From positions 160,001 to 224,000 of the IMG/VR virus record IMGVR_UViG_3300032321_002024: a stretch of DNA of 64,000 bases, one strand, 5' to 3'. The notes below the pieces were generated by a model that had not been told where the DNA came from, did not search any database, and saw nothing but the letters and a program-made list of their open reading frames with translations. Source of the DNA: a virus (lineage: Duplodnaviria; Caudoviricetes). Both the position numbers and the translations under genes were made by a program. Below are positions 19,535 through 50,010 of this stretch, piece by piece; within the stretch, counting starts at the first letter, position 1, and the number at the start of each line of letters is the position of its first letter.

Positions 19535-19558
19535 TTTTAACAACTAAATTTTATAAAA

Positions 19559-20125: not shown

Positions 20126-20130
20126 AAAAT

Positions 20131-21411: not shown

Positions 21412-21452
21412 ACTTTTATCAAATTAAAAAATATAAAATAGAAAACAAAATT

Positions 21453-21794: not shown

Positions 21795-21797
21795 TAG

Positions 21798-22337
21798 ATG
21801 AATTCTAAAGAAGATTTGTGCAGTTTGATTGGGGAATCAACACTTACACTTATTGGATACACTTTCAAAGACGAAAGAATTAAAGACGAATTAATTTCTA
21901 ATTTCAATTATGTTGAGATTAAAGAAATTGATTCGTCTTTTTCTTTTAAGTCTTTTTTAAGAAATGAGAAATTAAATCAAGTTTTAGATAGTGGTAAAAA
22001 GTTTGATTATATTCTTTTAGACCTAAATAATATCAGACCTACATACGATGGTGTATCTAAATGGGATAAGTCTTCTTTTATAAGAAATGTTCTTGAAAAA
22101 TTAAGAGAAAGAATATGGGTAGAAGTAGAACCTCAATATAAAATAATTGTAACTTCACCACTTAACAAAACTTCAGATAAAGATGAAATGGGTAGTTTTG
22201 TTGGAGGTAACCAACCTATTTATATGTCTGATTTGGTTGTTGTACTAAAAGGTGAAATATCCAGAGTTATAAAGAACAGAAACGGTGGTGAAGGTGATTA
22301 TATTCTTTATAATACTAAACAAAGTGTAGAAATTTAA
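21798..22337 (+). CDS. hypothetical protein (degenerate RecA/DnaB-like C-terminal features)
   Basis: ILLD..., YMSDLVVVL...VIKNRNG resembles helicase motifs, but no P-loop. Confidence 0.5.
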   Translation: MNSKEDLCSLIGESTLTLIGYTFKDERIKDELISNFNYVEIKEIDSSFSFKSFLRNEKLNQVLDSGKKFDYILLDLNNIRPTYDGVSKWDKSSFIRNVLEKLRERIWVEVEPQYKIIVTSPLNKTSDKDEMGSFVGGNQPIYMSDLVVVLKGEISRVIKNRNGGEGDYILYNTKQSVEI

Positions 22338-22350
22338 TTATATTTGTTAT

Positions 22351-22785
22351 ATGAGTATAGTAAATAACAGAAAAGCATATTTTGAGTATCATATTCTTGA
22401 AGAATTTGAAGCTGGAATTGTGCTATTGGGTTCTGAAGTAAAGTCAATTAGAATGGGTAATGTTACCTTAACCGATTCTTTTATTTACTTAAAATCTGGT
22501 GAAGTGTGGATTAAGAATTTTAAAGTTGCAAGATATAAACAAACACATCTTTCTGAAAAACACGAAGATAATAGAGAGAAGAAGTTGTTGCTTACAAAGA
22601 CACAGATTATAAAAATATCTCGAATGATGGAAGATAAAGGTATAACTTGTGTTCCACTTCAGGTCTTTTCCAAAAATAACAAATTAAAAGTTAAAATTGG
22701 TGTTGTAAAAGGAAAAAAACTTTATGATAAAAGACAGTCTATCAAAGAACGAGATATCAAAAGAGAAATGCAAAGAGGTTTATAA
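22351..22785 (+). CDS. smpB: SsrA-binding protein SmpB
   Basis: NRKAYFEY..EAGIVLLGSEVKSIR...KLLL...KGKKLYDKR. Confidence 0.95.
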   Translation: MSIVNNRKAYFEYHILEEFEAGIVLLGSEVKSIRMGNVTLTDSFIYLKSGEVWIKNFKVARYKQTHLSEKHEDNREKKLLLTKTQIIKISRMMEDKGITCVPLQVFSKNNKLKVKIGVVKGKKLYDKRQSIKERDIKREMQRGL

Positions 22786-25250: not shown

Positions 25251-25673
25251 ATGATAAAAGAACAAATTAACAATGACTACATGACGGCATTCAAATCAAA
25301 GAATACTGTTGCTAAAAACTTACTTTCTGTTGTGAAAGGAGAAATTCAAACTATTGAAAAAAATACTGGTGTTGATAATTTGTCTGATGAAGAAGTTCTC
25401 AAAATTTTAACAAAGACATCAAAATCTCTTAATGAGACTATTAAAGCATTATCACCAATTGATGGTAAAGGGGAAGATTTAGTTCAAGCGTGTGCTGAAT
25501 TAGCAATAGTTCAATGTTACCTACCAAAACAAATGTCTAAAGAAGAAGTTGCTGATAAAGTAACTGAACTTGTAAATTCTGGTGTAACAAATATAGGATT
25601 AATTATGAAAGAATTTGCAACTCTACCTGTAGATAAGAAATTGGTTTCTGAAATAGCAAAAACATTTTTATAA
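25251..25673 (+). CDS. yqeY: GatB/YqeY domain protein
   Basis: IKEQINNDYMTAFKSK...LSDEEVLKIL...ELAIVQCYLPKQMS...IGLIMK. Confidence 0.85.
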   Translation: MIKEQINNDYMTAFKSKNTVAKNLLSVVKGEIQTIEKNTGVDNLSDEEVLKILTKTSKSLNETIKALSPIDGKGEDLVQACAELAIVQCYLPKQMSKEEVADKVTELVNSGVTNIGLIMKEFATLPVDKKLVSEIAKTFL

Positions 25674-26255: not shown

Positions 26256-26287
26256 TTTGGTAGAATTAAAACTTTTTACTAATTTTG
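26256..26287 (+). promoter_or_regulatory. Bacteroidota-type promoter of tRNA operon 1
   Basis: TTTG-N20-TAATTTTG; a TAATATATA motif follows at 26319-26327. Confidence 0.7.
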
Positions 26288-26332
26288 TGTAAAATAAGAA
26301 CAAAAGAGAAAAACTTTTTAATATATAAAGAA

Positions 26333-26434
26333 ATGACAACAAATCGCACACATAAGCATTTTAGTAAATCGAGCAAGTGGTTTAGCACCCAGTTCGGTAC
26401 TGAGAAAGTATTGTGTGATTTTTCTACACTATAA
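26333..26434 (+). CDS. attenuator leader peptide 1 (33 aa)
   Basis: MTTNRTHKHFSKSSKWFSTQFGTEKVLCDFSTL; R,H,K,F,S,W match downstream tRNAs; contains AGTTCGGtACT complementary to the terminator 5' arm. Confidence 0.8.
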   Translation: MTTNRTHKHFSKSSKWFSTQFGTEKVLCDFSTL

Positions 26435-26459
26435 TGTAGTAAATTATAAGACAATATTT

Positions 26460-26493
26460 AAAGTCCGAACTTCAAAAGAGTTCGGACTTTTTT
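26460..26493 (+). terminator. attenuator terminator 1
   Basis: AAAGTCCGAACT-TCAAAAG-AGTTCGGACTTTTTT. Confidence 0.85.
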
Positions 26494-26507
26494 GTTTATA
26501 TCATTTT

Positions 26508-26580
26508 GGAATGGTGGCAGATCAGGTGATTGCGCTGGACTGAAAATCCAGAGGAGTGGGTTCGATACCCACCCGTTCCA
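26508..26580 (+). tRNA. tRNA-Phe(GAA)
   Basis: Cloverleaf; CTGGA-CTGAAAA-TCCAG. Confidence 0.9.
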
Positions 26581-26589
26581 CAAAATTTA

Positions 26590-26662
26590 GGACTCGTAGC
26601 TTAATCGGGAAAGCACTCCGCTTTTAACGGAGGGAGAGTGGGATCGTAACCCACCGGGTCCA
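26590..26662 (+). tRNA. tRNA-Lys(TTT)
   Basis: CTCCG-CTTTTAA-CGGAG; T-loop ATCGTAA. Confidence 0.9.
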
Positions 26663-26670
26663 CTAAATAT

Positions 26671-26743
26671 GATTTCGTAGCTCAGTTGGTAGAGCACCGC
26701 ACTTTTAATGCGGGGGTCGAGGGTTCGAACCCCTCCGGGATCA
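26671..26743 (+). tRNA. tRNA-Lys(TTT)
   Basis: CCGCA-CTTTTAA-TGCGG; canonical T-loop. Confidence 0.92.
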
Positions 26744-26745
26744 CT

Positions 26746-26818
26746 GTGAATGTAGCTCAATTGGTAGAGCGCTTGATTGTGATTCAAGAGGTAGCGGGAT
26801 CGTAACCCGTCATTCACC
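26746..26818 (+). tRNA. tRNA-His(GTG)
   Basis: CTTGA-TTGTGAT-TCAAG; C73. Confidence 0.9.
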
Positions 26819-26822
26819 AAAT

Positions 26823-26893
26823 ACGTCATACAGACATGGTGTCGGTCAGGTCTCCAAAACCTCGACGGGTGGGTTCAATTCCTACATGGCGTG
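26823..26893 (+). tRNA. tRNA-Trp(CCA)
   Basis: AGGT-CTCCAAA-ACCT; acceptor ACGTCAT/ATGGCGT. Confidence 0.85.
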
Positions 26894-26901
26894 CTAATAA
26901 T

Positions 26902-27030
26902 GGGGATGTAGCTCAGTGGTAGAGATTAAACTTCTCTTTTGAAATTTTACCTTGTAAGAGTGTTGATTGAAAGAGTTACTTCGTATATTTTGAACATATA
27001 AGGTCGTTGGTTCGAATCCAACCATCCCCG
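26902..27030 (+). tRNA. atypical tRNA (anticodon TGA, short variable loop) interrupted by a 57-nt insert
   Basis: Removing 26925-26981 gives a 72-nt cloverleaf GGGGATG..GCTC/GAGC..TATAT-TTTGAAC-ATATA..TTCGAAT..CATCCCC-G. Confidence 0.65.
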
Positions 27031-27036
27031 CTAAAT

Positions 27037-27109
27037 AGTTTCGTCGTTCAACTGGACAGGACACTCGGCTACGAACCGAGAAATGAAGATTCGACTTCTT
27101 CCGAGACTA
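27037..27109 (+). tRNA. tRNA-Arg(ACG)
   Basis: CTCGG-CTACGAA-CCGAG. Confidence 0.88.
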
Positions 27110-27118
27110 CAAAAAAAA

Positions 27119-27202
27119 GGAAGAGTAATTAAGCTGGCGCTTGACCTAGTCTTGAAAACTAGTGGTACTGAAAGGTATGGGGATCGATACCTCACTCTTC
27201 CG
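27119..27202 (+). tRNA. tRNA-Ser(TGA)
   Basis: CTAGT-CTTGAAA-ACTAG; long variable arm; G73. Confidence 0.88.
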
Positions 27203-27209
27203 CAAAAAA

Positions 27210-27296
27210 GGAGAATAAACTAATCTGGTGATTAGGACCGCCTGCTAAGCGAGTCGCACGTTGAATTTGTGTGGGGTTCAATTCCTCTGTTCTCCG
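27210..27296 (+). tRNA. tRNA-Ser(GCT)
   Basis: CGC-CTGCTAA-GCG; long variable arm. Confidence 0.88.
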
Positions 27297-27297
27297 C

Positions 27298-37047: not shown

Positions 37048-37079
37048 TTTGGTAGAATTAAAACTTTTATCTAAATTTG
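37048..37079 (+). promoter_or_regulatory. Bacteroidota-type promoter of tRNA operon 4
   Basis: TTTG-N20-TAAATTTG; TAATATATA at 37121-37129. Confidence 0.7.
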
Positions 37080-37135
37080 TATAAAATAATGACAAAAACT
37101 CGAAAGAGGTTAATAACTTTTAATATATAACAATA

Positions 37136-37249
37136 ATGAAAACAAATAATACAAATATGATGAACCTGACACTCAATGTGGTGAATATTACGTTATGTAA
37201 TATTAGACCTTCTGAGGGTTCTCCGCTATTTAGTAAATTTGTCTTTTGA
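37136..37249 (+). CDS. attenuator leader peptide 4 (37 aa)
   Basis: MKTNNTNMMNLTLNVVNITLCNIRPSEGSPLFSKFVF; residues 3-24 use only T,N,M,L,V,I,C,R; TCTGAGGGTTCT is an exact 12-nt complement of the terminator 5' arm. Confidence 0.85.
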   Translation: MKTNNTNMMNLTLNVVNITLCNIRPSEGSPLFSKFVF

Positions 37250-37277
37250 TATGTGAAAATTTATAACTAAATAATTA

Positions 37278-37309
37278 AGAACCCTCAGATAAAAATCTGA
37301 GGGTTTTTT
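37278..37309 (+). terminator. attenuator terminator 4
   Basis: AGAACCCTCAGAT-AAAA-ATCTGAGGGTTTTTT. Confidence 0.88.
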
Positions 37310-37324
37310 GTTTTAATAAAATTT

Positions 37325-37397
37325 GACTCCTTCGTCCAACGGGACAGGACATCGCTCTTCTAAAGCGAAGATACTGGTTCGAATCCAGTAGGGGTTA
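37325..37397 (+). tRNA. tRNA-Arg(TCT)
   Basis: TCGCT-CTTCTAA-AGCGA. Confidence 0.9.
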
Positions 37398-37404
37398 CTA
37401 AAAT

Positions 37405-37493
37405 GGGCTTGTAGCTGATTTGGTTTTAGCTGGTGACTGTTAATCACTGTATGAAAAATTGAAATAAAGTAGGTTCGAATCCTGCCTGGCCCG
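37405..37493 (+). tRNA. tRNA-Asn(GTT) with enlarged variable region
   Basis: GGTGA-CTGTTAA-TCACT; about 20-nt AT-rich variable region. Confidence 0.8.
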
Positions 37494-37500
37494 CAAAAAT

Positions 37501-37573
37501 AGTCTTGTAGCTCAATCGGGGGAGCGCCACTGTTACATAGTGGAGGGAGTCGGATCGTAACCGACCAGGACTA
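37501..37573 (+). tRNA. tRNA-Val(TAC)
   Basis: CCACT-GTTACAT-AGTGG. Confidence 0.85.
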
Positions 37574-37580
37574 CAAAAAC

Positions 37581-37654
37581 TGTCGATTAGCTCATTTGGT
37601 CAGAGCGCCACGCTGATACCGTGGAGGTGGTGGGATCGTAACCCGCATCGACAA
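37581..37654 (+). tRNA. tRNA-Ile(GAT)
   Basis: CCACG-CTGATAC-CGTGG. Confidence 0.9.
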
Positions 37655-37664
37655 CAAAAAAAAT

Positions 37665-37737
37665 GACACCGTGTCTGAATGGCTTAGGTCCCAGTCTGCA
37701 AAACTGTGGTATGTCGGTTCGAACCCGACCGGTGTCT
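37665..37737 (+). tRNA. tRNA-Cys(GCA)
   Basis: CAGT-CTGCAAA-ACTG; U73. Confidence 0.9.
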
Positions 37738-37743
37738 CAATAA

Positions 37744-37815
37744 GCTTCTTAAGCATTAATGGTGATGCGCTAGTCTTGTAAACTAGAGAAATCGGATCGT
37801 TACCGGTAAGAAGCT
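37744..37815 (+). tRNA. tRNA-Thr(TGT)
   Basis: CTAGT-CTTGTAA-ACTAG. Confidence 0.88.
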
Positions 37816-37817
37816 CA

Positions 37818-37937
37818 ATAACAGATGGTGATTAAGAGTGTTACTTCGTGAAATTGGTATACACATTTGACTTATAATCAAACTTTTGAGGGTTCAAGTC
37901 CCTCAGTAAAATCACTCTCAAGACTTTCCTCTGTTAT
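37818..37937 (+). ncRNA. tRNA-like element (D, anticodon TAT and T arms) enclosed in a long non-tRNA stem
   Basis: TTTGA-CTTATAA-TCAAA and GAGGG-TTCAAGT-CCCTC arms flanked by AGAGTG/CACTCT and ATAACAGA/TCTGTTAT helices. Confidence 0.6.
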
Positions 37938-37941
37938 ATCT

Positions 37942-38032
37942 GCCTCAGTGGCGAAATTTGGTTGAAACGCGCTAGACTTAGGATCTAGTACCCAAGTGGT
38001 AAACGTTGTCGGTTCGAGTCCGACCTGAGGTA
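37942..38032 (+). tRNA. tRNA-Leu(TAG)
   Basis: CTAGA-CTTAGGA-TCTAG; long variable arm. Confidence 0.9.
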
Positions 38033-38042
38033 CAAAAATTGC

Positions 38043-38114
38043 TACCGCGGCTTAGTGGAAAAGAACATTGGCTCATATCCTATGTTAAGTGAGTTCGAAC
38101 CTCATACGCGGTAC
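38043..38114 (+). tRNA. degenerate tRNA-Met-like (CAT)
   Basis: TACCGCG/CGCGGTA acceptor, CTCATAT loop, TTCGAAC T-loop; irregular spacing. Confidence 0.5.
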
Positions 38115-38683
38115 TATCTTACAATTGTAACGTGACCGGTGATTAACTTCTTATCATCGTTATCAATCATATCTAACCTCATTATCCAAGAATATGTTCC
38201 ATCCGGAACTAACACACCGTTATATGTTCCATCCCATTTAGAATTAACATCATTGGATTCCCATATTAAACCACCCCATCTGTTGTATATTGATAATTGA
38301 AAATTATCAACAGATATACCACTTGTTAATATTGGACCCCACGTCTGATTAAACTCATTTCCATCTGGAGTAAACGAATTAGGAACCCAATAAATTAGTG
38401 GATCACACTGAGTAACAATAATACTCAATACCTGTGGTGTTCCGGGACATCCTATATCATTATACCCAATTGCAACTAATTGAAAATCACCTGGTTCATC
38501 ATAAGTTATATCTACTGATAAACCCTGACCAATTAAACTTCCATTTAGAAACCATTCTACCGAACCATTAACATCAATTGTAGTTGAATAAGTAAAAGTA
38601 TTTGCATTCTCACAAATCTCAAATGTATGTTGACTAAAAACATTTAGACTGATTAATAAGAACAAAGATAAAATTAGTTTCAT
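38114..38683 (-). CDS. T9SS type B (gliding-motility-associated) C-terminal domain protein
   Basis: Signal peptide; VPNSFTPDGNEFN..IYNRWG..WDG..GTY..GHVTIVR. Confidence 0.88.
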   Translation of the reverse strand: MKLILSLFLLISLNVFSQHTFEICENANTFTYSTTIDVNGSVEWFLNGSLIGQGLSVDITYDEPGDFQLVAIGYNDIGCPGTPQVLSIIVTQCDPLIYWVPNSFTPDGNEFNQTWGPILTSGISVDNFQLSIYNRWGGLIWESNDVNSKWDGTYNGVLVPDGTYSWIMRLDMIDNDDKKLITGHVTIVR

Positions 38684-38691
38684 ATTCTATT

Positions 38692-39258
38692 TTAATTATG
38701 TTGTATTGGTGTTAATGTTGGTTGTGGAGAAACTCCGGTATTTGTAGTTGCTGTAAATGAACATCCACCATTGGTATAAGTATATGTTATTGTAGCGGCT
38801 CCCGGTCCTGCACTTCCCGGACAAAACTGACCATTGACAACGCCATTACCGGTCCAAGTTCCACCTGCTGGTAAACCAACTAATGCCACACACGGATCTG
38901 TAACACAAAACGGTCCAATTGGTGTAATAGTCGGAACGACTTGATAAATAAGAACATTTAAGTTTACTGCTGGTGATGGACACCCAGCCTGTGAAGTATA
39001 AATAACACTAACTGCGTTATTAATTAATCCTGGAGGACAGTTTGACCAGTTGACTTGAATTTGATTTGTTCCCTGGCCAGATGTGATTGTAGCACAAGCT
39101 GGAACTGTCCAAGTATAAGTTCCCGCACCGATTGAAGTCACTTGATACTGAGATAGTGATTGAGATTGATAACAAACTGTGTCTGGATTTGTTGTGGTTA
39201 ACTGACCGAATAATATTGTCGTGAGAAACAAAAACGATAATAAAACTAAATTTTTCAT
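38692..39258 (-). CDS. secreted PKD/Ig-like adhesin-domain protein
   Basis: Signal peptide; YTWTVP..ITSGQGTNQIQVNW; PAGGTWTG..F.P; ends PIQHN. Confidence 0.75.
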   Translation of the reverse strand: MKNLVLLSFLFLTTILFGQLTTTNPDTVCYQSQSLSQYQVTSIGAGTYTWTVPACATITSGQGTNQIQVNWSNCPPGLINNAVSVIYTSQAGCPSPAVNLNVLIYQVVPTITPIGPFCVTDPCVALVGLPAGGTWTGNGVVNGQFCPGSAGPGAATITYTYTNGGCSFTATTNTGVSPQPTLTPIQHN

Positions 39259-39277
39259 ACTTTTCTTTTTTTTTATT

Positions 39278-40324
39278 TTAATTATGGCTTATTGGGCCTA
39301 AAATTACTTGAGGTGGTTGAGTTATTGTAACACTTCCAGTAGCTATACAACCATTTAAATTAACAGATACTGTATAGGTTCCTGGACAAAGATTAGATAT
39401 TGATTGAGTGGTCAATCCGTTTGACCAAAGGTAAGTTGCTCCTGGATAGTTAGCATTTGCAGTTCCGTTACAAAGACCAAAACAAGTTACATTTGTTGAA
39501 GTTGGATTTACAATTAAATTTACAGGAGTCCAAGTTATCGAAACATATCCGTTTCCTGTATTGTTTCCAGCAAGACAACTTCCACCGACCGGTATTAATG
39601 AAGAACCAGCTCCACCTCCACCACCTCCGTTAGATCCTGTGCAACAACCATCATTTCCACCACCTCCACCTCCGTAGTAACCTCCACCGCCGCCTCCACC
39701 AGAAGCAGTTTGCCAAAATCCACCATTACCTCCTTGACCTAATGTTCCTGATTGTCCACCTGGAGGAGTTCCAGCCCAGGGAGCACCACCAGCACCACCT
39801 GTAGTTTGAGTCCCGCCTCCGCCACCAAATCCAAAACTATTTACACCCGCACCTCCATTGTTGCAATTAGACACACCACCACTTGTAGTGGTTGTTGAAC
39901 CTCCGCCTTTTCCGCCACCACCTCCAGCTACAATTACTCTGTTACCTAAAGCAGTTCCACCAATTCTGATATCAGAAGCACCTCCACCTCCACAAGAATT
40001 ATAATTTGCGTTTGCTGGATTAGATGCAAAACCTGTTCCTCCACCATTCCAACCACCTGAGTTATTACCACAAGAACCTTGACCACCAACATAAATATTT
40101 AGAATTTGACCAGGTGTTACAGCTATTGTTGCTGAGATTCTAGCACCGTTTCCTCCGATATTTCCTCCTCCTTTTGCCCCAGCAACAATTACGTTTATAG
40201 AAGTGACACATGGTGGAACTGTCCAGGTTTGGACGTTTCCTGTATAATTAAAAGTTTGAGATTGAGCAAATAATATATTAAATACTGAAGATAGAACCAA
40301 TAAAATTGAAAAAACTATTCTCAC
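39278..40324 (-). CDS. secreted glycine-rich domain + SprB-repeat protein
   Basis: Signal peptide; FNYTGNVQTWTVP..GGGGASDIR..VAGGGGG; TNVTCFGLCNG..YLWSNG; ends PISHN. Confidence 0.8.
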   Translation of the reverse strand: MRIVFSILLVLSSVFNILFAQSQTFNYTGNVQTWTVPPCVTSINVIVAGAKGGGNIGGNGARISATIAVTPGQILNIYVGGQGSCGNNSGGWNGGGTGFASNPANANYNSCGGGGASDIRIGGTALGNRVIVAGGGGGKGGGSTTTTSGGVSNCNNGGAGVNSFGFGGGGGTQTTGGAGGAPWAGTPPGGQSGTLGQGGNGGFWQTASGGGGGGGYYGGGGGGNDGCCTGSNGGGGGGAGSSLIPVGGSCLAGNNTGNGYVSITWTPVNLIVNPTSTNVTCFGLCNGTANANYPGATYLWSNGLTTQSISNLCPGTYTVSVNLNGCIATGSVTITQPPQVILGPISHN

Positions 40325-42775
40325 CTATTTAATTTCTATTTTAACAATTTGAGTGTATTCAATATTGTTACTAATGTATATATAGTATATTCCAGATGAA
40401 CTTTTTACATTATCAATATAAATTGCGTTTATACCTGGTTTAACATTTATCTCTTTGTTTAAAATCTCAGCACCCTTTGTATCTTTAATAAAAATTGAAC
40501 ATTCCCCAACTAAGTTTTTGTTATTTAACAATATTTGAAATTGACCAGAATTAGGATTTGGAAATATTGAAAAATAACCACTATTATTTGTTTGACAATT
40601 TACATTTATTGGACCATATTCTTTTGATTTACCATCAGTATCAATTTGTAATAGTTTATAATATCCGTTTCCGTAATATCCTTCATTATCAACAGTAGAA
40701 TAATAAATTAATTGTGTTGAATTTCCAGATGACTCAACATTAGTTAATTGAGACCAATCTAAACCATTTCTAGATTTTAAAATACTAAAATAATCACTAT
40801 TATGCTCACTAGATGTAATCCAATTTAAAGTTACTATACCTTCTTCACAATTTCCATCAAAACTTACTAATTCAACCGGAAGTGCACCATTGACGATAAC
40901 AAAGAAATCGATGATTTGTGTTCCACAGTTGTAGCCATTGGAAACGGTTGCTCGAACCGATCCGTCTGTTGTTGTTTGTGGCCAAGTAAAAGTAATCGTT
41001 GGTGAATTGGAATTAGCGATGTTTATCCACATAGGTGCAGTTACGGACTCTGTATAAGACCATTGGTAGTTCACTCCAGCTATTGGTGTGATTGAATAGG
41101 TTTCTTGCGTTCCTGCTATAATGGTATTATTTCCCGATATGTTAGATACTGATCCAACAGAAGGATTAACGGTTATTGTTGTCGATGTTGATGTTGAACA
41201 TCCGTTTGATGTTGCGGTTAATTGATAGGTTTGTGTAGTTGTGGGAGAGGCAAAAGGACTTGGCGCAGCTGGATTTGAGAGTCCGGTTGATGGAGTCCAT
41301 AGATACGTTATCGGTGATCCACCTGTGTTTCCTACCGATGAAATCAATTGAGTATTTGACCCATTACATATAGTATTAGTTACTGCGTTGATGTTTATCA
41401 CAGGGTTGGAATTAACTGTTATAGTTATTGAGGCACAACCTCCACTAAAAAGACCACCGTTTAGATTTCTTGCATAGTATGTAGTGGTTGATGCAGGACT
41501 TACCGAGATGGAATTTCCGGTTGCCACAAAAGTGGAAGCACATCCTCCGGTATACCAATAAACCACTCCAATAGCACCGTTTGCTGTCAAAGTGGTAGAT
41601 GATCCATCACAAATAGTATTTTGTGTTGCAGATATAGAGGATGGATCTGGTGGAGGCGGAGATACACATGTTAGATTAACAGAAAAGCCACTATTTGATG
41701 AATATCCATGAACCAATATGTAGTAAATTGTTCCTACTGTGGAAGTCCATGAATATGAAGCAGACGTACTAGCACAAGCTGGGCCATAATCATCATTACC
41801 TCCTACGCATGTTAGTGTGCTACAATTTGGTCCAGAAAAAACACTAATTTTGCTATCCCAAGCAGTTGCACATAGAGAAGCTGTCATGATTTGTCCGTTT
41901 CCTGTTACAGCATACCATACACCCGGCATTGTTTGCATGGTAGTGCAAGTTCCATTTTCGCCAGTGCCTGAGTTTGTTGCATTTACAGTAGTTCCCGATA
42001 ATGTTTGACCACACGTAATAGATGTTGAATTACAGACTAAATCGTTGGATGGCGGGGTTGGTGCAGAACATGTTAAACAAGATATTGAGGATGTTCCACA
42101 ACTTGAAGCAGTTCCACACGTATTATTTGTATTGTAATGCACAAAATATGTTCCTGAAGATGGGCAAACCCAATTTAGTGGAGAGTTTCCACTAGTAACT
42201 ACAGTACCATTATAAGTTCCCGATCTAACTGTGATATATCCACCTAAATTGTAATATGATTGATATGTTTGTCCTGCAACACAAGAAGTAATTGTACTAT
42301 ACTCTGCTTGATATTGACATGTACTAATAGTTACAGTTGTTGGAGTTGATGGAGCGATTGCTGATCCGTATGATGAGGTATTAGTACACGGTCCGGGAGC
42401 TGCAGCTGCACAGCTCCCTAGTACTGTTTGTCCACCTGTAGTTGCAGTACCCGCAACTGGTTGTATAGTATTGATTATGATAGACCCTGCTCCATTGAGG
42501 ACTTGTATACGCATTTCGGAAGGGTATAATCCAGCTGCTGTTCGATAGACTCTAATCGTGGCACCTACTGCGGCAGTAAATGTAGAATTGGTAGGCCCTA
42601 ATCCAACACAACTTAAGCCACTTAAAACAGTAACTCCATTAACTGAAACTGCAACGGTTCCTCCGTTCCAACCGTCACCAAAGGTATCTGTTCGTTTAAT
42701 TGTGTGTGTACATGATTGTGAAAGTACAGCCGTGTAAGTAAAAAGAAAGAAAAAAATTGCAATTAAAGACTTCAT
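40325..42775 (-). CDS. T9SS type A sorting domain surface protein
   Basis: Signal peptide; Cys-rich Ig-like repeats; LPVELVSF linker; IFPNP...GIYYI..KIEIK CTD. Confidence 0.88.
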   Translation of the reverse strand: MKSLIAIFFFLFTYTAVLSQSCTHTIKRTDTFGDGWNGGTVAVSVNGVTVLSGLSCVGLGPTNSTFTAAVGATIRVYRTAAGLYPSEMRIQVLNGAGSIIINTIQPVAGTATTGGQTVLGSCAAAAPGPCTNTSSYGSAIAPSTPTTVTISTCQYQAEYSTITSCVAGQTYQSYYNLGGYITVRSGTYNGTVVTSGNSPLNWVCPSSGTYFVHYNTNNTCGTASSCGTSSISCLTCSAPTPPSNDLVCNSTSITCGQTLSGTTVNATNSGTGENGTCTTMQTMPGVWYAVTGNGQIMTASLCATAWDSKISVFSGPNCSTLTCVGGNDDYGPACASTSASYSWTSTVGTIYYILVHGYSSNSGFSVNLTCVSPPPPDPSSISATQNTICDGSSTTLTANGAIGVVYWYTGGCASTFVATGNSISVSPASTTTYYARNLNGGLFSGGCASITITVNSNPVININAVTNTICNGSNTQLISSVGNTGGSPITYLWTPSTGLSNPAAPSPFASPTTTQTYQLTATSNGCSTSTSTTITVNPSVGSVSNISGNNTIIAGTQETYSITPIAGVNYQWSYTESVTAPMWINIANSNSPTITFTWPQTTTDGSVRATVSNGYNCGTQIIDFFVIVNGALPVELVSFDGNCEEGIVTLNWITSSEHNSDYFSILKSRNGLDWSQLTNVESSGNSTQLIYYSTVDNEGYYGNGYYKLLQIDTDGKSKEYGPINVNCQTNNSGYFSIFPNPNSGQFQILLNNKNLVGECSIFIKDTKGAEILNKEINVKPGINAIYIDNVKSSSGIYYIYISNNIEYTQIVKIEIK

Positions 42776-42954
42776 AGTTCAAAATATTTTATTTGAACTC
42801 ACTTGAAGAATCTTTTTAAGAAACCCCCATCTTCCATGGGCCGGTCGAGTATTAGTGTATATATCTTTTGATTATGTGAGGTTTTACTGAAAAAGTATTA
42901 AAAAAAATATACTCTGTATATGATTTAGCAAAATCAATATCTGGGTTAGCATTC

Positions 42955-45195
42955 TTATTCAAATAGAGGGAATCTTGGTAGATATAATCTAGTTGTTGCG
43001 TTATCAGCAAAGATTAGATATTTCGAATCATCTCTAATGATGTATTGATTACACATCTTATTGTGTTCTGTTTCAGGTATTATTTCTGTAAATAATCTTA
43101 TATTAGTGATCTTCATATCTGATGCTAAAATCTCTGGATTGAAACCTTCAGCTTCAAATTCAAACTGTTCTATATCAAATGACTGTTTGTATAACTGTCT
43201 TAACATAGTATATGATAAATTAGCAGCCTCATCTTCTTCATCAACATTTCTCTTATAGATAAACTGTTCAGCTTTTTTGTTTCTCTGATCTACATTTAAT
43301 ACATAACAATACCAAGTATCTTCTGTAAGAGCAATCGCATTGTTATTAGGTTGTCCCATTAAAGATTGACTATATGTCACTCCATTAAGAGTGAATTTTA
43401 ACTCATCACTTTCAAGTTCAAACTTATATCCTATATTCGAATTATAATTATAGTAACTCATAAAGTTATACGTTTCACCTGGTATATAATTATTCAAATT
43501 AAACCAACACATAAATCCTATATTATTAGTAGTTCCTAAAATAGGATTAAAGTTTACATATCTAACTGCTAAATTTCTATAAGCTAGTGATGATAAATCA
43601 TAATGAGCTTTTGAAATAATCGTAGTTGAGTTTTCAATTAATTCTTTATTTATACTTGCATTATATTCTAACCTTATAACTTCAGTAGTAAGTGGTTTAA
43701 ATTGATCTTTGTTTGCAATTGCTTCTTTTTCTTGGTTATTTTCAAATCCAAATAACTCATCAATTGTTGTGTTTTTAGTAAGTCTATCAACAGATTGTTT
43801 GATGTTTTCATCTGCGTAGGTGATGTTTGCGGTTTTGTTGTATTTTTTCAGAACCAGTTTGTAGTAAACTGCCGCATTGTTAAAATTTCTAAACTGTTGA
43901 GCATGATCAACAGAATACATCCTATTTAAATCACAGAAATATAAAAAGTCTTCTTTTGCTGGTCTTCTTTGAGCTCCAAAAATCTCTTTGAATTGTTGTT
44001 TAGTTATATGAACTTGAAATGATTCAAATAAATTCAAATCAAATTGATTCATTATAATCTGTGAATCGGGAAAATTGTTTCCTTCTACTGAGACTTTTAA
44101 TTCTCCTTCACAAACTACATTATATAATTGATACTCGTGAAGTATTGTATCTTGTCCTTTTTTATCTGGATCAGTTGCGTAGTAAATTACTCTATGTCCA
44201 AAAATCATCTGAGCATCATTACTCAATTTTTGTAATAAATTCATAGCCTGACTTTGTTGATAAGGATTGAAAAGATTTGCCTTCTCATCTGTAGTCATTT
44301 GTGGTAGTGAGCTTGTTTCTGGATCACATCCAGGCCCACCTGAACTTCCATTAGCATTTAAATTACTATTAGGAACAAATACTCCATTCTCATCATAAGC
44401 ACCCATTAAATTAGACTGACAACATTGTCTAATACCAAACAAGTTAGTTTTCTTAGAATCTTCCGAGACATTTTGAAAACTTCCTAATAGATTTATATCT
44501 TGTATAGTCACACTTTGATTTGAATTATTTTCTATTAAATATTCAATTTGAAAAAATCTAATTGGATTTATTCTTCTCGTTGTTATATTTTCTTTAGTGA
44601 ATAATTCATAATCAGACCAACTTCTACTACTATCTTGTGAAAATCTATAAGATATTTTACAACCTGATGGAATTCCAGTTGATGATATAATTTCAATATC
44701 TGTAATTCTAAATACTTTAAAAATAAAAGGTGGCTTAATAATAAGAGTTTTACCAGCTGGAATTGTAGATACACCCTCTTCATTTTGCATTGGTCTTTCT
44801 AATTCACCTTGAATATTATATTCTAAAATTCTAATTACACCAATAGTAGATGTTCCTTTTCTTACCCATTTAACTTCTAAATAAAAAGGATCTAATGGAT
44901 CGATAATTGGAAAGTTCATAACTTTTAAAGTTAGGTCTAACCAATCTGTCCAATTTTGACCATCTCTTGAAACTCTATAATAGTTTAGTAAATATCTTGC
45001 GTCGGTTAATCCAATAGTGTCATAGTAAAATCTTGTTAACGTTTTAACATTTTGAATTTCAGGAAACGACAAAATATATTCATCTCCAATATTTGAAAAT
45101 GAAGGACAAGCGTTAGCCGCTTGAACTCCTACAGTTGGATCGAATTTGTCTGAAATAACAAGTTTACCTAGAATTATATCTGAAGAGATGTTCAT
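42955..45195 (-). CDS. virion protein with T4 gp14 (neck)-like central domain and LamG-like C-terminus
   Basis: GHRVIYY..D.ILHEY...RPAKEDFLYF..MYSV resembles gp14; TAATATATA at 45201-45209. Confidence 0.5.
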   Translation of the reverse strand: MNISSDIILGKLVISDKFDPTVGVQAANACPSFSNIGDEYILSFPEIQNVKTLTRFYYDTIGLTDARYLLNYYRVSRDGQNWTDWLDLTLKVMNFPIIDPLDPFYLEVKWVRKGTSTIGVIRILEYNIQGELERPMQNEEGVSTIPAGKTLIIKPPFIFKVFRITDIEIISSTGIPSGCKISYRFSQDSSRSWSDYELFTKENITTRRINPIRFFQIEYLIENNSNQSVTIQDINLLGSFQNVSEDSKKTNLFGIRQCCQSNLMGAYDENGVFVPNSNLNANGSSGGPGCDPETSSLPQMTTDEKANLFNPYQQSQAMNLLQKLSNDAQMIFGHRVIYYATDPDKKGQDTILHEYQLYNVVCEGELKVSVEGNNFPDSQIIMNQFDLNLFESFQVHITKQQFKEIFGAQRRPAKEDFLYFCDLNRMYSVDHAQQFRNFNNAAVYYKLVLKKYNKTANITYADENIKQSVDRLTKNTTIDELFGFENNQEKEAIANKDQFKPLTTEVIRLEYNASINKELIENSTTIISKAHYDLSSLAYRNLAVRYVNFNPILGTTNNIGFMCWFNLNNYIPGETYNFMSYYNYNSNIGYKFELESDELKFTLNGVTYSQSLMGQPNNNAIALTEDTWYCYVLNVDQRNKKAEQFIYKRNVDEEDEAANLSYTMLRQLYKQSFDIEQFEFEAEGFNPEILASDMKITNIRLFTEIIPETEHNKMCNQYIIRDDSKYLIFADNATTRLYLPRFPLFE

Positions 45196-45242
45196 GAAAG
45201 TATATATTAAAATTATTTATTCACAATAATATTTGTGAAAAA

Positions 45243-45274
45243 TTTGTTAAAACAATAAATACTCCGTATATTTG
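45243..45274 (+). promoter_or_regulatory. Bacteroidota-type promoter
   Basis: TTTG-N20-TATATTTG. Confidence 0.65.
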
Positions 45275-45341
45275 TATAAATCTATCAAAGGATAGTAGTT
45301 TAGAATAGTTCTAAACTGAATTGAAATAAAAAATATAAATT

Positions 45342-46586
45342 ATGAATATTAAAGAAAAGTTCTTAGAATTAACAAGCAGAACCTACCCTCACGGGACAGA
45401 GGAAGAACTATTTCCAATTTTATTTAATACCGTAGATGGTCTGCAGAAAGACGAGTTCGGAAACCTATTCATAAAAATCGGAGATAGTGATGTAATGTTT
45501 ACTTCACACTTAGATACAGCAACTTCTGCTAACACTCCAGTAAATCATGTTTTTGATGGTGATATTATTAAAACAGATGGTAAATCTATCTTAGGAGCTG
45601 ACGATAAATCAGGTGTTACTATTATGTTGTATATGATTAAAAACAACATACCAGGTCTTTACTATTTCTTCTTAGGTGAAGAAGTTGGATGTATCGGTTC
45701 AAAAAAAGTGGCTAACGTTCAAAAAGAAAATAAAATTGAAGGTATCAATAAAGTAATTTCATTTGACCGTAGAGGAACCAATTCGGTTATTACTTATCAA
45801 AGTGGTAAAAGATGTTGTTCAGATAACTTTGGTAAAACACTAGCTGCTCAACTTAATCAAGCAGGTGGTGATTTTGAATATGAAACTGATCCAACTGGAA
45901 TTTTAACAGACTCTATTCAATTTATTAGTATCTATTCAGAGTGTACAAATATCTCTGTAGGTTATCAATCAGAACACACTTATTCTGAAACTCAGAATAT
46001 TAAACACTTAGAAAAATTAGCTGAGGCTTGTTTAAAAGTTGATTGGAATTCACTTCCTGTTGAAAGAGATCCTTCTGTAGTAGAGTATAAATCTTATGGT
46101 AGCTCTTGGGGTTCTCCAGGTTGGGATGATTATGATGATTACCATGGTTATGGATATGGGTCTAGAAGTCAAGTAAAAGGATATTCTACTTACAACAATT
46201 GGGGGAGTATAACTAAACCAAAGACAAAAACAGAAAACATTTGGTTTCACGATAAGAAATACAACTATGTTTCAAAAATAGAAATTGAAGAGTGGACTAA
46301 AAAAGTAATTTCAGTTGACCTTTGTAAAGAAAGAATTTCTGAGGAAAAGATTATTATTGACTCATTGTTGAAATCTCTTGACTTAGATTTCAAATCAACA
46401 GAGTGGAACGGTTTCAAACTTAAAGTCAATTATGAAACAAACTACTCAACAGAGTGCGATAGAAATGATTTGATTGGATATCTACCAGAATTAGACTACT
46501 CTAAAACTGAAGATTTAGGAGATTTCTCAAACAATTTCTTTGATACAGATTCTTACTTGGATATGTGTGATGGTTTTTATGACTAA
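45342..46586 (+). CDS. M20/M28-family zinc peptidase
   Basis: SHLDT, LGADDK, GEEVG, FDRRG and EH motifs. Confidence 0.85.
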   Translation: MNIKEKFLELTSRTYPHGTEEELFPILFNTVDGLQKDEFGNLFIKIGDSDVMFTSHLDTATSANTPVNHVFDGDIIKTDGKSILGADDKSGVTIMLYMIKNNIPGLYYFFLGEEVGCIGSKKVANVQKENKIEGINKVISFDRRGTNSVITYQSGKRCCSDNFGKTLAAQLNQAGGDFEYETDPTGILTDSIQFISIYSECTNISVGYQSEHTYSETQNIKHLEKLAEACLKVDWNSLPVERDPSVVEYKSYGSSWGSPGWDDYDDYHGYGYGSRSQVKGYSTYNNWGSITKPKTKTENIWFHDKKYNYVSKIEIEEWTKKVISVDLCKERISEEKIIIDSLLKSLDLDFKSTEWNGFKLKVNYETNYSTECDRNDLIGYLPELDYSKTEDLGDFSNNFFDTDSYLDMCDGFYD

Positions 46587-46788
46587 TATTATGAAAGTAA
46601 TTAAAGATAAATATGTAACTAATTGTGCTAGACACACAAAGGTTGAGTTCGATAATAAAAATTTCAGAAGATTTCATTTTGGATATAAAGGTAGAACCGC
46701 CGAAATACTGTGGCTTTCTAATGAAAGAGAATTTATCCCAGATAGTTTAGAAAAATTCTTAGAAAAAGAATTCAAAAAAGTCGGTTAA
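46579..46788 (+). CDS. hypothetical protein
   Basis: Short ORF before a terminator. Confidence 0.5.
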   Translation: MTNIMKVIKDKYVTNCARHTKVEFDNKNFRRFHFGYKGRTAEILWLSNEREFIPDSLEKFLEKEFKKVG

Positions 46789-46804
46789 TTCCGACTTTTT
46801 TTTT
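46774..46804 (+). terminator. intrinsic terminator
   Basis: AAAAAAGTCGG-TTAATT-CCGACTTTTTTTT. Confidence 0.8.
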
Positions 46805-46955
46805 ATATTTGTAATATGATGAGCATTTTTAAAAAATATTTTCAAAAAAGAAAGATTAAAGATAAGATTTACAAAGAGTATGAAAATGCTCTTGAGAATA
46901 AAGATTATATCAGAACTAGTATACTATCCAAAAGATTTCTTAAAATTAAATAATT

Positions 46956-47441
46956 ATGAAAATCGGTGAGATTAAATCATTAATTGATGAAAAACAAAAA
47001 TCATCAAATATGTTACATAAACAGTTGATTAATTTACAAACAGAATTAACTCAATTGAGAAGTCAATATAATCTTCTTGAAATGCAAGAATTTGTAAATT
47101 ATTTACAAATTGGTGAAGTTATTGAATTAGATAGTTATTATTCATTTAGTGGTTTTTGCAAAGATCCTAAATCTAATAATTCATTTCAATCTGGTGAAAA
47201 GATAAAAATTGTAAAAAAGAATAAAAAGTCAATCGTTATTGAGGTGGTAAAAAAACACACAAAAAAATGGGATGAAGTTCAAAAGAAGTCAATTATCACA
47301 GGTGAAACTAATCCAGGTTGGAATATCAGAGTTGATTTAGACTCTTTTCATCACTTCTATTTAAAAAGTGCAACAATGAGATCGGCATTTGATTCTTATG
47401 TTAAAAGAAAAAACGCTTTAGATAGTTTATTTGATGAATAA
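46956..47441 (+). CDS. hypothetical protein with C-terminal RKNALDSLF motif
   Basis: 161 aa ORF. Confidence 0.65.
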   Translation: MKIGEIKSLIDEKQKSSNMLHKQLINLQTELTQLRSQYNLLEMQEFVNYLQIGEVIELDSYYSFSGFCKDPKSNNSFQSGEKIKIVKKNKKSIVIEVVKKHTKKWDEVQKKSIITGETNPGWNIRVDLDSFHHFYLKSATMRSAFDSYVKRKNALDSLFDE

Positions 47442-47874
47442 AGAAGTTGAAATATTAAAGATAGGAAGTATCATGCCAATTGTTCCTATTTTAGGTGCAA
47501 GAGTATATGATACTTCTCAGTTTAGAAAAACAACCATTATGGTTGTTTTTGATGGTGGTAAACTATTTGATTACTATGTTAATGGGTTAATAGTAAATTG
47601 TGGTGACGAATATAGTTATCAAAGAACCGCTCAGTCTATTGTCGGTAGCCCTTTTAGTTTCAGACCTGGAGTAAAATCAGAAAATATTTTAAAAGGTATC
47701 TCAGATGGTGAACCAATAATTGGTCAATCTTATACAATAAATAACTCCAGTTGGCACACTTCTAAAGTTGAAAGAATAATAGATGGTTGTATTCTTATTA
47801 CAAAAAACTCTGTTTATGCTATTCATAATCTATCCGATGTAAGAGAAAAAAAATTAGGAGATTTAGGTCTATAA
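47434..47874 (+). CDS. hypothetical protein with C-terminal REKKLGDLGL motif
   Basis: ORF. Confidence 0.65.
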   Translation: MNKEVEILKIGSIMPIVPILGARVYDTSQFRKTTIMVVFDGGKLFDYYVNGLIVNCGDEYSYQRTAQSIVGSPFSFRPGVKSENILKGISDGEPIIGQSYTINNSSWHTSKVERIIDGCILITKNSVYAIHNLSDVREKKLGDLGL

Positions 47875-47929
47875 CTCTTTATTTTACTATATTTTAAAAT
47901 TTGATTCATATTTTTTAATATATAGTTTA

Positions 47930-49354
47930 ATGAAGTTTCTACAAACATACGAAGGATTGAATAAGGCTTATAGAAATAAGTCACTACCACATGCTGGTGA
48001 ACCAATTCACTCAGGTGATAAGATATCTATTTTACAACAAGACTGGTTCGAGAAACTTTTACCTGAAACTTTTACTATACACTCTAATCCAAATATTAAA
48101 AAATTAAATAAAGACTTGACCATCACTGATATTGATGGAAATAAAGAATATGTTTTTGATAAAAATGAATGCACAATTGATAATGGATTAGTTCAGTTTA
48201 GTTATTACTACAATAGTGCTGATCAACAAGATGAAAAAAACAAACATAAAAGACCAATACCATTAGATCCTAATTATGTTTTAGAAAATGGTGAGCCATC
48301 TATGCTTGAATTTGACATACACTTTTCAAAAATAGGACAAGGTGATATTTTTGCAGAAGATGATGAAATAAAAATGCTTGTTGATATTACTTATGGTAAT
48401 AATATGGCAGTTGAGTTTTCATTGGAAGCTCCTAATAAAATTAATATTGTTCATTATACATCAGTTGGGTCTAAATATGATTCAGAAACACACTGGGGTT
48501 TCACTCATGAGTCAATCGATGACTTAGTAAAGTTTTTTAATGCGTTTAATCACGGTATAGAACTTACCTCTGATGATTTAAATTTTTTAGATGAAAACTA
48601 TGATAGTTATAAACATCAAGATGAAAATCCGAAACACCTTTATAATGATGATTCAGATTTAATTAAATTTGGAAATTCCTATGAAGAATCCTTCACTGAA
48701 AAAGAAGATATCTTTTTGATTATTAATAATGCTAAATCACCTTTATTTAAATATTTTCCAAAAGTTGCTAGATACTTAAGAGTAAAAGATATTCCTTATA
48801 AAGCAGCTTGTTCACCTGAAGAAGTTCAAAGATATAATCAAGAATATAATATTATTGGATGTTTTTCTACAGGTTCTGACTATAGTATGAAATCACCGGA
48901 CTCAAAAGCAGAATTTGCGGCATCTGAGGAAGCACTAAGAATTTTAAAATGTCCTATACTAGCAATGTGTTATGGATTTCAATCAATGGTTAAGTTCTAT
49001 GGACAGAACGTTGATGGTGGTGAATTAAATTGTGGTTTATTTAACCTAACTGATTTTGATTCAGAACATTTTTTATTTAAGAATATTGACCTTACTGAAC
49101 AAAAAGTTAATTTCTGTTTCCATGACTATCCGGTTAATGTTCCGGTTGACTTTGAAAATATTGCTATGTTAGGTGAGACAATAGCTGGGATATCTAATAA
49201 GAATTTAAAAAGGTATGGAATACTTTTTCATCCAGAAGAATTAGAAGAAACTTGCATAATTTTAGATAATTTTGTTAATGAATGTAAAATTTCTACACCT
49301 ACTAAATTACTAAAACTTCAAACTTTTGAAAATTTTATTAAAAAATCTTTGTAA
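47930..49354 (+). CDS. fusion of an unknown phage domain and a class I glutamine amidotransferase-like domain
   Basis: PILAMCYGFQ (nucleophile Cys) and FHPE; N-domain paralogous to 34843-35397. Confidence 0.75.
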   Translation: MKFLQTYEGLNKAYRNKSLPHAGEPIHSGDKISILQQDWFEKLLPETFTIHSNPNIKKLNKDLTITDIDGNKEYVFDKNECTIDNGLVQFSYYYNSADQQDEKNKHKRPIPLDPNYVLENGEPSMLEFDIHFSKIGQGDIFAEDDEIKMLVDITYGNNMAVEFSLEAPNKINIVHYTSVGSKYDSETHWGFTHESIDDLVKFFNAFNHGIELTSDDLNFLDENYDSYKHQDENPKHLYNDDSDLIKFGNSYEESFTEKEDIFLIINNAKSPLFKYFPKVARYLRVKDIPYKAACSPEEVQRYNQEYNIIGCFSTGSDYSMKSPDSKAEFAASEEALRILKCPILAMCYGFQSMVKFYGQNVDGGELNCGLFNLTDFDSEHFLFKNIDLTEQKVNFCFHDYPVNVPVDFENIAMLGETIAGISNKNLKRYGILFHPEELEETCIILDNFVNECKISTPTKLLKLQTFENFIKKSL

Positions 49355-49378
49355 AATAGAAACTTTTTTCTAAATTTG
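49348..49378 (+). promoter_or_regulatory. Bacteroidota-type promoter of tRNA operon 5
   Basis: TTTG-N19-TAAATTTG; GAATATATA at 49411-49419. Confidence 0.7.
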
Positions 49379-49426
49379 TATAGAAAATTGATAAACAAAC
49401 AAAAATAATTGAATATATACTTAACA

Positions 49427-49519
49427 ATGAAAAACTTAAATGTAAATATCGTAGTAAATCAACAACCGCAGGATCAAGATCGTGTCGGAGTGGCTAACTA
49501 TGTCTTTACAATAAGTTAA
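49427..49519 (+). CDS. attenuator leader peptide 5 (30 aa)
   Basis: MKNLNVNIVVNQQPQDQDRVGVANYVFTIS; QQPQDQD matches downstream Asp, Asp, Pro and Gln tRNAs. Confidence 0.85.
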   Translation: MKNLNVNIVVNQQPQDQDRVGVANYVFTIS

Positions 49520-49540
49520 AAATTTATATAACAAATTTGT

Positions 49541-49573
49541 AAAACCCGGTTAGTAATCTAATCGGGTTTTTTT
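49541..49573 (+). terminator. attenuator terminator 5
   Basis: AAAACCCGGTTAG-TAAT-CTAATCGGGTTTTTTT. Confidence 0.85.
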
Positions 49574-49580
49574 GTTTTTA

Positions 49581-49652
49581 GGTCTATTAGGGTAGTGGTT
49601 ATCCTTCCTCACTGTCTATGAGGAGACGCGAGTTCGATTCTCGCATAGACCG
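49581..49652 (+). tRNA. tRNA-Asp(GTC)
   Basis: CCTCA-CTGTCTA-TGAGG. Confidence 0.9.
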
Positions 49653-49716
49653 CAAGTTGGGTTGTGAGTGACTTCCCGTTTTGGCTTAAGCCTTAGGTAT
49701 GGAACTCTCAAATTTT

Positions 49717-49789
49717 GGTCTATTGGTGAAATGGCTTATCATCCCACCCTGTCACGGTGGAGTAGACGGATCGTAACCGTCATAGACCG
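49717..49789 (+). tRNA. tRNA-Asp(GTC)
   Basis: CCACC-CTGTCAC-GGTGG; T-loop ATCGTAA. Confidence 0.88.
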
Positions 49790-49853
49790 CACAAAGTAAC
49801 TGTTTGGTGGTGAAAGTACTCTTTAGGGAATAGAGTAAAATAATTCTCAAAAA

Positions 49854-49927
49854 CTAGGTGTAGCTCAGTTTGGTAGAGCGGGGAGTTTGGGACTCTCAGG
49901 CCGCAGGTTCGAACCCTGTCACTTAGA
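49854..49927 (+). tRNA. tRNA-Pro(TGG)
   Basis: GGGAG-TTTGGGA-CTCTC. Confidence 0.9.
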
Positions 49928-49935
49928 CTTAAAAT

Positions 49936-50010
49936 TGTCCTGTAGTGAAATTGGCATCACGTATCATTTTGGCTGATAAGTTTGAGGTTCGAACCCTCAC
50001 AGGACAACCA
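49936..50010 (+). tRNA. tRNA-Gln(TTG), CCA encoded
   Basis: TATCA-TTTTGGC-TGATA; ends ACCA. Confidence 0.88.

Follow-up and report, generated by a model that had tools for sequence, protein, structure and literature searches.

We analyzed a 64,000-nt window of a Caudoviricetes phage genome (positions 160,001 to 224,000 of IMG/VR record IMGVR_UViG_3300032321_002024, which comprises 262.6 kb at 30% G+C) and found five units in which a short open reading frame (ORF) of 23–37 codons, the leader, is followed by an intrinsic terminator and then by a block of tRNA genes. With a probability of about 0.86, we consider each unit to be a ribosome-mediated transcription attenuator that controls the tRNA genes behind it. 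Strong support from sequence comparison argues for a real, conserved regulatory system that would put a known mechanism to a new use. If so, it would be the first feedback control of tRNA genes through the decoding speed of their own codons; textbook attenuation would be extended from enzyme operons to tRNA genes, and a direct feedback loop would be closed. For over 50 years it has been an open question why phages carry tRNA genes (PMC10264068). A sensor on each tRNA block would show what the phage monitors, namely slow decoding of particular codons, and the condition that opens the terminators would be the condition that the tRNAs are for, which makes the question testable. The design would also explain the sorting of phage tRNAs into blocks.

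All five units lie on the plus strand. Leader 1 (26333..26434, 33 codons for 33 amino acids) has control codons for Arg (as CGC), His, Lys, Phe, Ser, and Trp; a predicted antiterminator strand (26391..26401) lies within it, and it is followed by terminator 1 (26460..26494, hairpin and U-run) and block 1 (26508..27297), which encodes tRNAs for Phe, Lys, Lys, His, and Trp, a 129-nt tRNA-like element, Arg(ACG), Ser(TGA), and Ser(GCT). Leader 2 (32866..32937, 23 codons; control codons for Tyr and Glu) carries its antiterminator strand at 32915..32927 and precedes terminator 2 (32957..32988) and block 2 (33098..33263; Glu(TTC) and Tyr(GTA)). Leader 3 (33317..33397, 26 codons; Ile, both as ATA, Ala, and Gly) has its strand at 33376..33387, terminator 3 at 33422..33451, and block 3 at 33460..33694, composed of Ile(TAT), Gly(TCC), and a non-canonical Ala(TGC) with a G3:U70 pair. 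Leader 4 (37136..37249, 37 codons; Asn, Thr, Met, Leu, Val, Ile as ATT, Cys, and Arg as AGA) has an antiterminator strand (37211..37222) whose 12 nt are perfectly complementary to the terminator 5′ arm, and terminator 4 (37277..37310) is followed by block 4 (37325..38116), with Arg(TCT), Asn, Val, Ile(GAT), Cys, Thr, a tRNA called as Ile(TAT), Leu(TAG), and a degenerate CAT tRNA. Leader 5 (49427..49519, 30 codons; Gln, Pro, and Asp) has the weakest antiterminator strand (49493..49511), which pairs with only part of the 5′ arm of terminator 5 (49541..49574), and block 5 (49581..50010) encodes Asp, Asp, Pro, and Gln tRNAs. ARAGORN called 22 tRNAs in the five blocks at its default threshold; Ser(TGA), Ser(GCT), Ala(TGC), and the CAT tRNA at 38041 were called solely at the relaxed threshold. 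From each stop codon, 22–32 nt lead to a GC-rich hairpin with a U-run and then to the tRNAs, and the genes directly behind the leaders are tRNA genes only, with no biosynthetic enzymes or synthetases.

Units 1, 4, and 5 each have a promoter motif of the form TTTG, 20 nt, TAnnTTTG (26256..26287, 37048..37079, and 49348..49378), which we take to be the Bacteroidota-type sigma70 consensus, fitting a Bacteroidota host group. In addition, a TATATA motif (26322..26327, 37124–37129, and 49414–49419) stands 5–7 nt before each leader ATG (5 nt in unit 1), and the two motifs together suggest near-leaderless transcripts for these units. TATATA occurs within 30 nt upstream of 66 of the 192 long genes of the whole record, with peaks at 4–6 and 18–27 nt before the ATG, and is a probable phage promoter that would give many near-leaderless mRNAs. 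A sigma factor is encoded (18926–19534), and searches of this record and of four others returned no beta subunit of RNA polymerase, so that transcription probably relies on the host core enzyme. Leader 2 lacks its own promoter motif and comes after an initiator-type tRNA(CAT) (32774..32847, three G-C pairs in the anticodon stem), which is not behind an attenuator. The original prediction, made from the window alone, had proposed one architecture of promoter, ORF, terminator, and tRNAs for all units; the five units are where it had placed them, with the leader residues it had listed, and the promoter is the part that did not hold throughout.

The match between leaders and tRNAs is the first line of evidence. 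Each leader contains at least one codon for every amino acid of its own block, and the true leader-to-block pairing ranks first among the 120 permutations. In the control stretches of leaders 1–5, 12/14, 5/11, 6/15, 19/20, and 7/17 codons are matched, compared with 3.8, 1.3, 2.9, 8.2, and 2.1 expected from the amino acid usage of the phage, the match of leader 3 alone being borderline (P = 0.05). Matched control codons ending in G or C number 19 of 46 (7.3 expected). The predicted agreement of leader codons with downstream tRNAs is thus upheld by the pairing, with the exception of the second Ile(TAT)-called tRNA (37839), for which leader 4 has no ATA. Likewise, the predicted coverage of all 20 amino acids proved secure for 19 of them: Met is added solely through the degenerate CAT tRNA at 38041 (24 bits in Rfam, where the cut-off is 29), with which two ATG codons of leader 4 go, and the initiator tRNAs lie outside the system.

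The same match was examined across related loci, which were gathered by neighboring genes and terminator patterns, not by codon content. One fixed rule called 120 units, of which four were dropped by eye before the statistics owing to a weak hairpin or a long distance to the tRNAs; the data set thus holds 116 units from about 45 phage records in 34 leader families, and since relatedness makes the records interdependent, results are reported by family. The true leader–block pairing was the single best one in every one of the 32 records that have at least two units, so that the comparison against shuffled controls that the original prediction had set in advance was passed. Across the 34 families, 65% of the core codons belong to the downstream set (38% after shuffling, with 47% as the largest null value), and 95% of the downstream amino acids are found in the leader (64% after shuffling). 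The distal leader codons of these families did not match the downstream tRNAs (p 0.13).

These results bear on the alternative in which ordinary terminators happen to be preceded by ORFs that arose by chance in AT-rich spacers. Short ORFs are frequent, and the match of leader 3 by itself is borderline; the permutation and co-variation results nevertheless refute this explanation, which we regard as practically dismissed. A scan of the whole record for ORFs of 14–60 codons that end 12–45 nt before an intergenic terminator returned the five units and two other cases, both lacking the hairpin complement and tRNAs behind, so that only five leader–terminator–tRNA units occur in 262 kb and all stand before tRNAs. 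Moreover, when 120 prokaryotic chromosome stretches were scanned with the same hairpin motif, at least 52 short-ORF cases were found among the matches listed, none with a tRNA behind and most with a weak complement.

Block partitions vary widely among the records, and the leaders track the splits and mergers. A separate Arg/Ser block has its own Ser/Arg leader, Gln-only blocks have poly-Gln leaders, and merged Tyr/Glu/Ile/Gly/Ala blocks have a single merged leader; in some phages the whole code is shared between two leaders, and a block of 21 tRNAs is preceded by a 42-codon leader with all 20 amino acids. The tracking extends to isoacceptors. Counted by family, CG-box Arg tRNAs go with CGN and AG-box Arg tRNAs with AGR (9:0 versus 0:6), and, for Ile, ATA accompanies the TAT tRNA and ATY the GAT tRNA (6:0 versus 0:8). 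In four-codon boxes, 161 of 362 matched control codons end in G (44%), whereas 45 of 253 unmatched codons of the same region (18%) and 5% of those in phage genes do so. This G-ending bias is the clear signal in codon choice; the overall ratio of wobble to Watson–Crick codons differs only modestly from expectation (691:489 observed, 624:534 expected). NNG codons are read through wobble by tRNAs with U34, or by host tRNAs with C34, and U34 tRNAs dominate these blocks. In theory, a sensitive attenuator requires a particular choice among synonymous codons (PMC1183508).

The second line of evidence is the RNA switch. The distal half of every leader holds a complement of its own terminator 5′ arm, as had been predicted, with z values against shuffled sequences of −4.0, −3.1, −1.7, −8.0, and −2.1 for leaders 1–5, those of leaders 3 and 5 being weak. 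The pairing forms the base of a long hairpin that encloses the spacer after the stop codon. Helix co-variation was counted in one family, that of leader 1, where the antiterminator helix is 94.9% paired with both-side changes in 5/7 pairs (0/500 shuffles were as high), and the terminator has both-side changes in 7/9 pairs. In the family of leader 4, two records rewrote all three strands together and a third did so differently. In 31 of the 34 families, pairing of the leader is stronger with the arm of its own terminator than with those of foreign terminators. Control codons, an intrinsic terminator, and an overlapping antiterminator are thus all present, in agreement with the trp/his/pheST logic that had been invoked for these units, and the tracking of tRNAs by codons together with the co-variation of helix and terminator lends good support to the idea that a stalled ribosome would free the antiterminator.

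Nascent-transcript folding, in which the ribosome was modeled as blocking 12 nt past its codon, reproduced a switch. The modeled antiterminator survives stalls to about codons 16, 12, 16, 22, and 22 of leaders 1–5, which is the end of the control codons, and is gone when the ribosome is at the stop codon. The distance from stop codon to hairpin is 18–36 nt in 106 of the 116 units, whereas ordinary gene ends of the record lie 4–31 nt, mostly less than 20 nt, before their hairpins. In naked RNA, the predicted probabilities of the antiterminator are 0.54, 0.21, 0.82, 1.00, and 0.06 for leaders 1–5, and the value exceeds 0.5 in 62% of all units. A protector helix was not consistently predicted, and many leaders seem to have none. 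An untranslated leader may therefore read through, unlike that of the trp attenuator, and loss of the start codon may raise read-through rather than abolish it.

This property is also what would be expected if the leaders, although translated and tied to the terminator, served as a general translation-activity or timing switch in which the codon match only fine-tunes the response. With the antiterminator formed by naked RNA in most units, any failure of translation would give read-through, and the short or absent 5′ untranslated regions that we infer would suit such a switch. A general switch, however, has no need for block- and isoacceptor-specific codons that are rewritten at every split or merger of blocks, and we regard this explanation as unlikely.

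Ribosome-free explanations are less probable still. Uncharged tRNAs could bind the leader RNA directly, in the manner of T-box leaders, which use codon–anticodon pairing and a weaker antiterminator (PMC4052509), or the hairpins ahead of the tRNAs could be signals that guide RNA processing or stability. Neither accounts for a single open frame that starts with ATG and has A at −3 in 88 of the 116 units, for indels in multiples of three in the control region of the family of leader 4, or for a nearly fixed distance from stop codon to hairpin. Direct binding is further opposed by the T-box models of Rfam, which gave no match at the gathering score or at E ≤ 1, and we hold this pair of explanations to be very improbable.

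Several observations weigh against attenuation as the explanation, besides the dependence among related records already mentioned. At equilibrium, the terminator wins on the full transcript with a stalled ribosome for leaders 1, 3, and 5, and equilibrium folding of the full transcript favors the terminator in 81% of all units. For these three leaders the predicted switch between the two states is visible in the nascent-transcript model only, weakly for leader 5, and the switch must accordingly be kinetic, relying on co-transcriptional folding during RNA synthesis. A folding control with chimeric terminators separated poorly (median 0.55 versus 0.82); because many 5′ arms begin alike, this control is weakly informative, and the ranking of own against foreign arms was used in its place. 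The isoacceptor match was not significant for Leu and Ser, and some tRNA clusters have no called leader. Finally, the gap from terminator 2 to tRNA-Glu contains a second promoter motif of the host type (33012..33042), with a small hairpin and U-run behind it (33068–33089), and the motif is also present in related record G001; several other relatives have a degenerate tRNA-like sequence in this gap in place of the promoter motif. The Glu and Tyr tRNAs may thus have an ungated supply, so that the description of the blocks as gated, which holds in that a terminator stands ahead of every block, is not strict for block 2.

As a ribosome-mediated attenuator, each unit would work as follows. Host RNA polymerase would start just upstream of the leader, and a ribosome would translate the leader behind it. 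With fast reading of the control codons, the ribosome would cover the distal leader and halt about 26 nt short of the hairpin; the terminator would then form, leaving few tRNAs made. When, instead, a tRNA of the block is in short supply, or is uncharged, cleaved, or poorly modified, the ribosome would linger on the control codons, the distal leader would pair with the emerging 5′ arm of the terminator, and transcription would enter the genes of the tRNAs that read those codons. In this way, the capacity of the tRNA pool for decoding would be under negative feedback, block by block. Leader translation, its coupling to transcription, read-through, and the physiological trigger are deduced here from anatomy, from the co-variation of codons with tRNAs and of helices with terminators, and from the predicted switch geometry, which this analysis established directly. 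For Bacteroidota phages in general, we consider it fairly probable that such devices provide a self-balancing tRNA supply, with the code divided among one to seven leaders that preferentially use rare wobble-read codons and each switch on only the limiting block. The units would then offer small, naturally occurring reporters with which a codon-specific shortage of tRNA could be read in Bacteroidota.

The device would respond alike to tRNA cleavage, decay, lost modification, high demand, and amino acid starvation. Additional tRNA is of use against the first four of these and not against starvation, and the separate sensors for isoacceptors point the same way. If this holds, the phage would detect and repair the cleavage or decay of host tRNAs codon by codon. 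The original prediction had suggested an on-demand counter to host anticodon nucleases, which is one option for a device that would react to any slowing of these codons; that the attenuator was selected specifically for this purpose, and not for general tRNA upkeep, is possible, and we consider it less likely than not. Phage tRNAs rescue infection from tRNA-cleaving defenses, for which strong expression is needed (PMC11555353; PMC10264068), and separate Ile and Arg isoacceptor leaders would suit tRNA-specific loss better than starvation. On the other hand, the sensors are not confined to a few nuclease targets and span almost the entire code. Initiator tRNA is a common nuclease target, and it is left outside the system. 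Furthermore, general decay of host tRNAs after the loss of host DNA would select the same design (review PMC13191261).

The units share several features with the trpL, hisL, leuL, and pheL attenuators and with the multivalent thrL and ilvL attenuators: regulatory codons in a short ORF, an antiterminator and an intrinsic terminator that exclude each other, and a bias among synonymous codons (PMC1183508). They differ from these attenuators of biosynthesis operons in that they control tRNA genes, whose products themselves read the sensor; in that a leader can list up to 20 amino acids and several leaders divide the code; in their phage carrier; and in the protector helix, which is not consistently predicted. 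The units had no match to known leader families in Rfam, where the similarity to His_leader was weak (28.7 bits against a cut-off of 49, E 0.49), and leaders 1, 4, and 5 had no match to leader peptides in Pfam. The Escherichia coli pheST attenuator, with the pheM leader, controls phenylalanyl-tRNA synthetase by the supply of charged tRNA. It likewise attenuates a part of the translation machinery, which in that case is a synthetase protein for one amino acid and not tRNA genes. In T-box systems, too, tRNA status decides between terminator and antiterminator, but uncharged tRNA is bound directly by a 200–300-nt fold without an ORF, and the genes controlled are those for synthetases, biosynthesis, and transport (PMC4052509). 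Mycobacterial leaderless poly-cysteine attenuators also have a short ORF at the transcript start that senses the decoding of its own codons, and differ in serving one amino acid and protein-coding targets on a chromosome (bioRxiv 10.1101/834739). Phage tRNA arrays directed against tRNA-cleaving defenses, such as the tRNA-Tyr of T5 and SP15 acting against retron-Eco7, are another case of phage tRNAs that replace lost host tRNAs and in which the expression level matters; there a strong promoter drives the tRNA, and attenuation and leaders are not mentioned (PMC11555353). The original prediction knew of no described attenuator of tRNA genes, and we found none in the full-text literature searched, which mostly did not cover subscription journals; the term "attenuat" is absent from the huge-phage paper PMC7162821.

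Units also occur in two cultured phages, which makes experiments possible now. Cellulophaga phage phi4:1 (KC821632.1) has three that divide its tRNA array, with leaders at 87065–87133, 88025–88108, and 89771–89869 whose codons match the blocks Pro/Glu/Gln/His/Leu/Arg, Ala/Lys/Ile/Gly/Met/Asp/Thr/Val/Arg, and Tyr/Ser/Asn/Trp/Phe. Tenacibaculum phage Gundel_1 (MT732474.1) has two with matching leader codons (4443–4505 and 5093–5164 of the examined stretch L456). Prevotella phage Lak-B2 (MK250021.1), a gut megaphage, probably has one unit: an ORF of 37 codons with many for Asn, Ile, Tyr, Asp, Ala, Trp, and Gln (16072–16185 of stretch L457) and an imperfect hairpin with U-run stand ahead of a 21-tRNA array. 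Flavobacterium phage MaF61 gave no tRNA match. The chromosome scan, which used one terminator motif, found ordinary terminators without tRNA behind and no leader–tRNA unit among the matches listed, and chromosomal versions of the design may exist. As to annotation and promoters, one phi4:1 leader is annotated as the hypothetical gp075 with an earlier start, the annotated gp076 overlaps a tRNA-Ser, and both Gundel_1 leader ATGs lie 4 nt behind the TAnnTTTG element of a promoter. In the Microscillaceae metagenome-assembled genome JANRIC010000240.1, a 42-codon ORF with a strong terminator complement (−13 kcal/mol) precedes a chromosomal TROVE/Ro60 gene (stretch L397, 5144–6661, minus strand) and could possibly be a cellular attenuator for an RNA-repair gene.

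Some tRNAs within and around the blocks are unusual. The 129-nt tRNA-like element of block 1 (26902–27030) has normal acceptor, D, and T arms, but its anticodon region has been replaced and is long. With 94% conservation in related records G001 and G003, the element is unlikely to be a decay product; it may be a decoy, a tRNA that carries an intron, or an RNA derived from a tRNA. Ile tRNAs with a UAU anticodon are rare in bacteria, and the window has two that are called as such. The one at 33460–33534 is matched by the ATA codons of leader 3, and the other (37839–37913), behind leader 4, looks degenerate. The Ala(TGC) tRNA at 33622–33694 has, in addition to its G3:U70 pair, odd D and T loops and no Rfam match at E ≤ 1, and in many relatives the Ala tRNA is also called solely at the relaxed threshold. 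No leader precedes either of the initiator-type tRNAs (32774 and 60946), which is also true of most lone CAT tRNAs in the relatives. Several elongated tRNA-like matches of 97–122 nt lie away from the main arrays of related records (G004, 243698–245750; G005, 19123–22640).

The DNA ligase of the record is 74% identical to that of LR745206 (634 kb) and 71% identical to that of LR756502 (642 kb). Bacteroidetes hosts are predicted for the Mahaphage clade of huge phages (PMC7162821). A search of the record for RtcB found none. Upstream of unit 1 lies a YqeY-family gene (25251–25673, Pfam PF09424), and at the start of the record (1–150) a 20-nt sequence recurs at offsets 0, 48, 96, and 126. Toward the end of the window, a GOLLD RNA (61501–61894, Rfam RF02032, 282 bits) is located amid CAT tRNAs and tRNA-like sequences, and near it a terminator-like hairpin stands directly before the tRNA at 62192.

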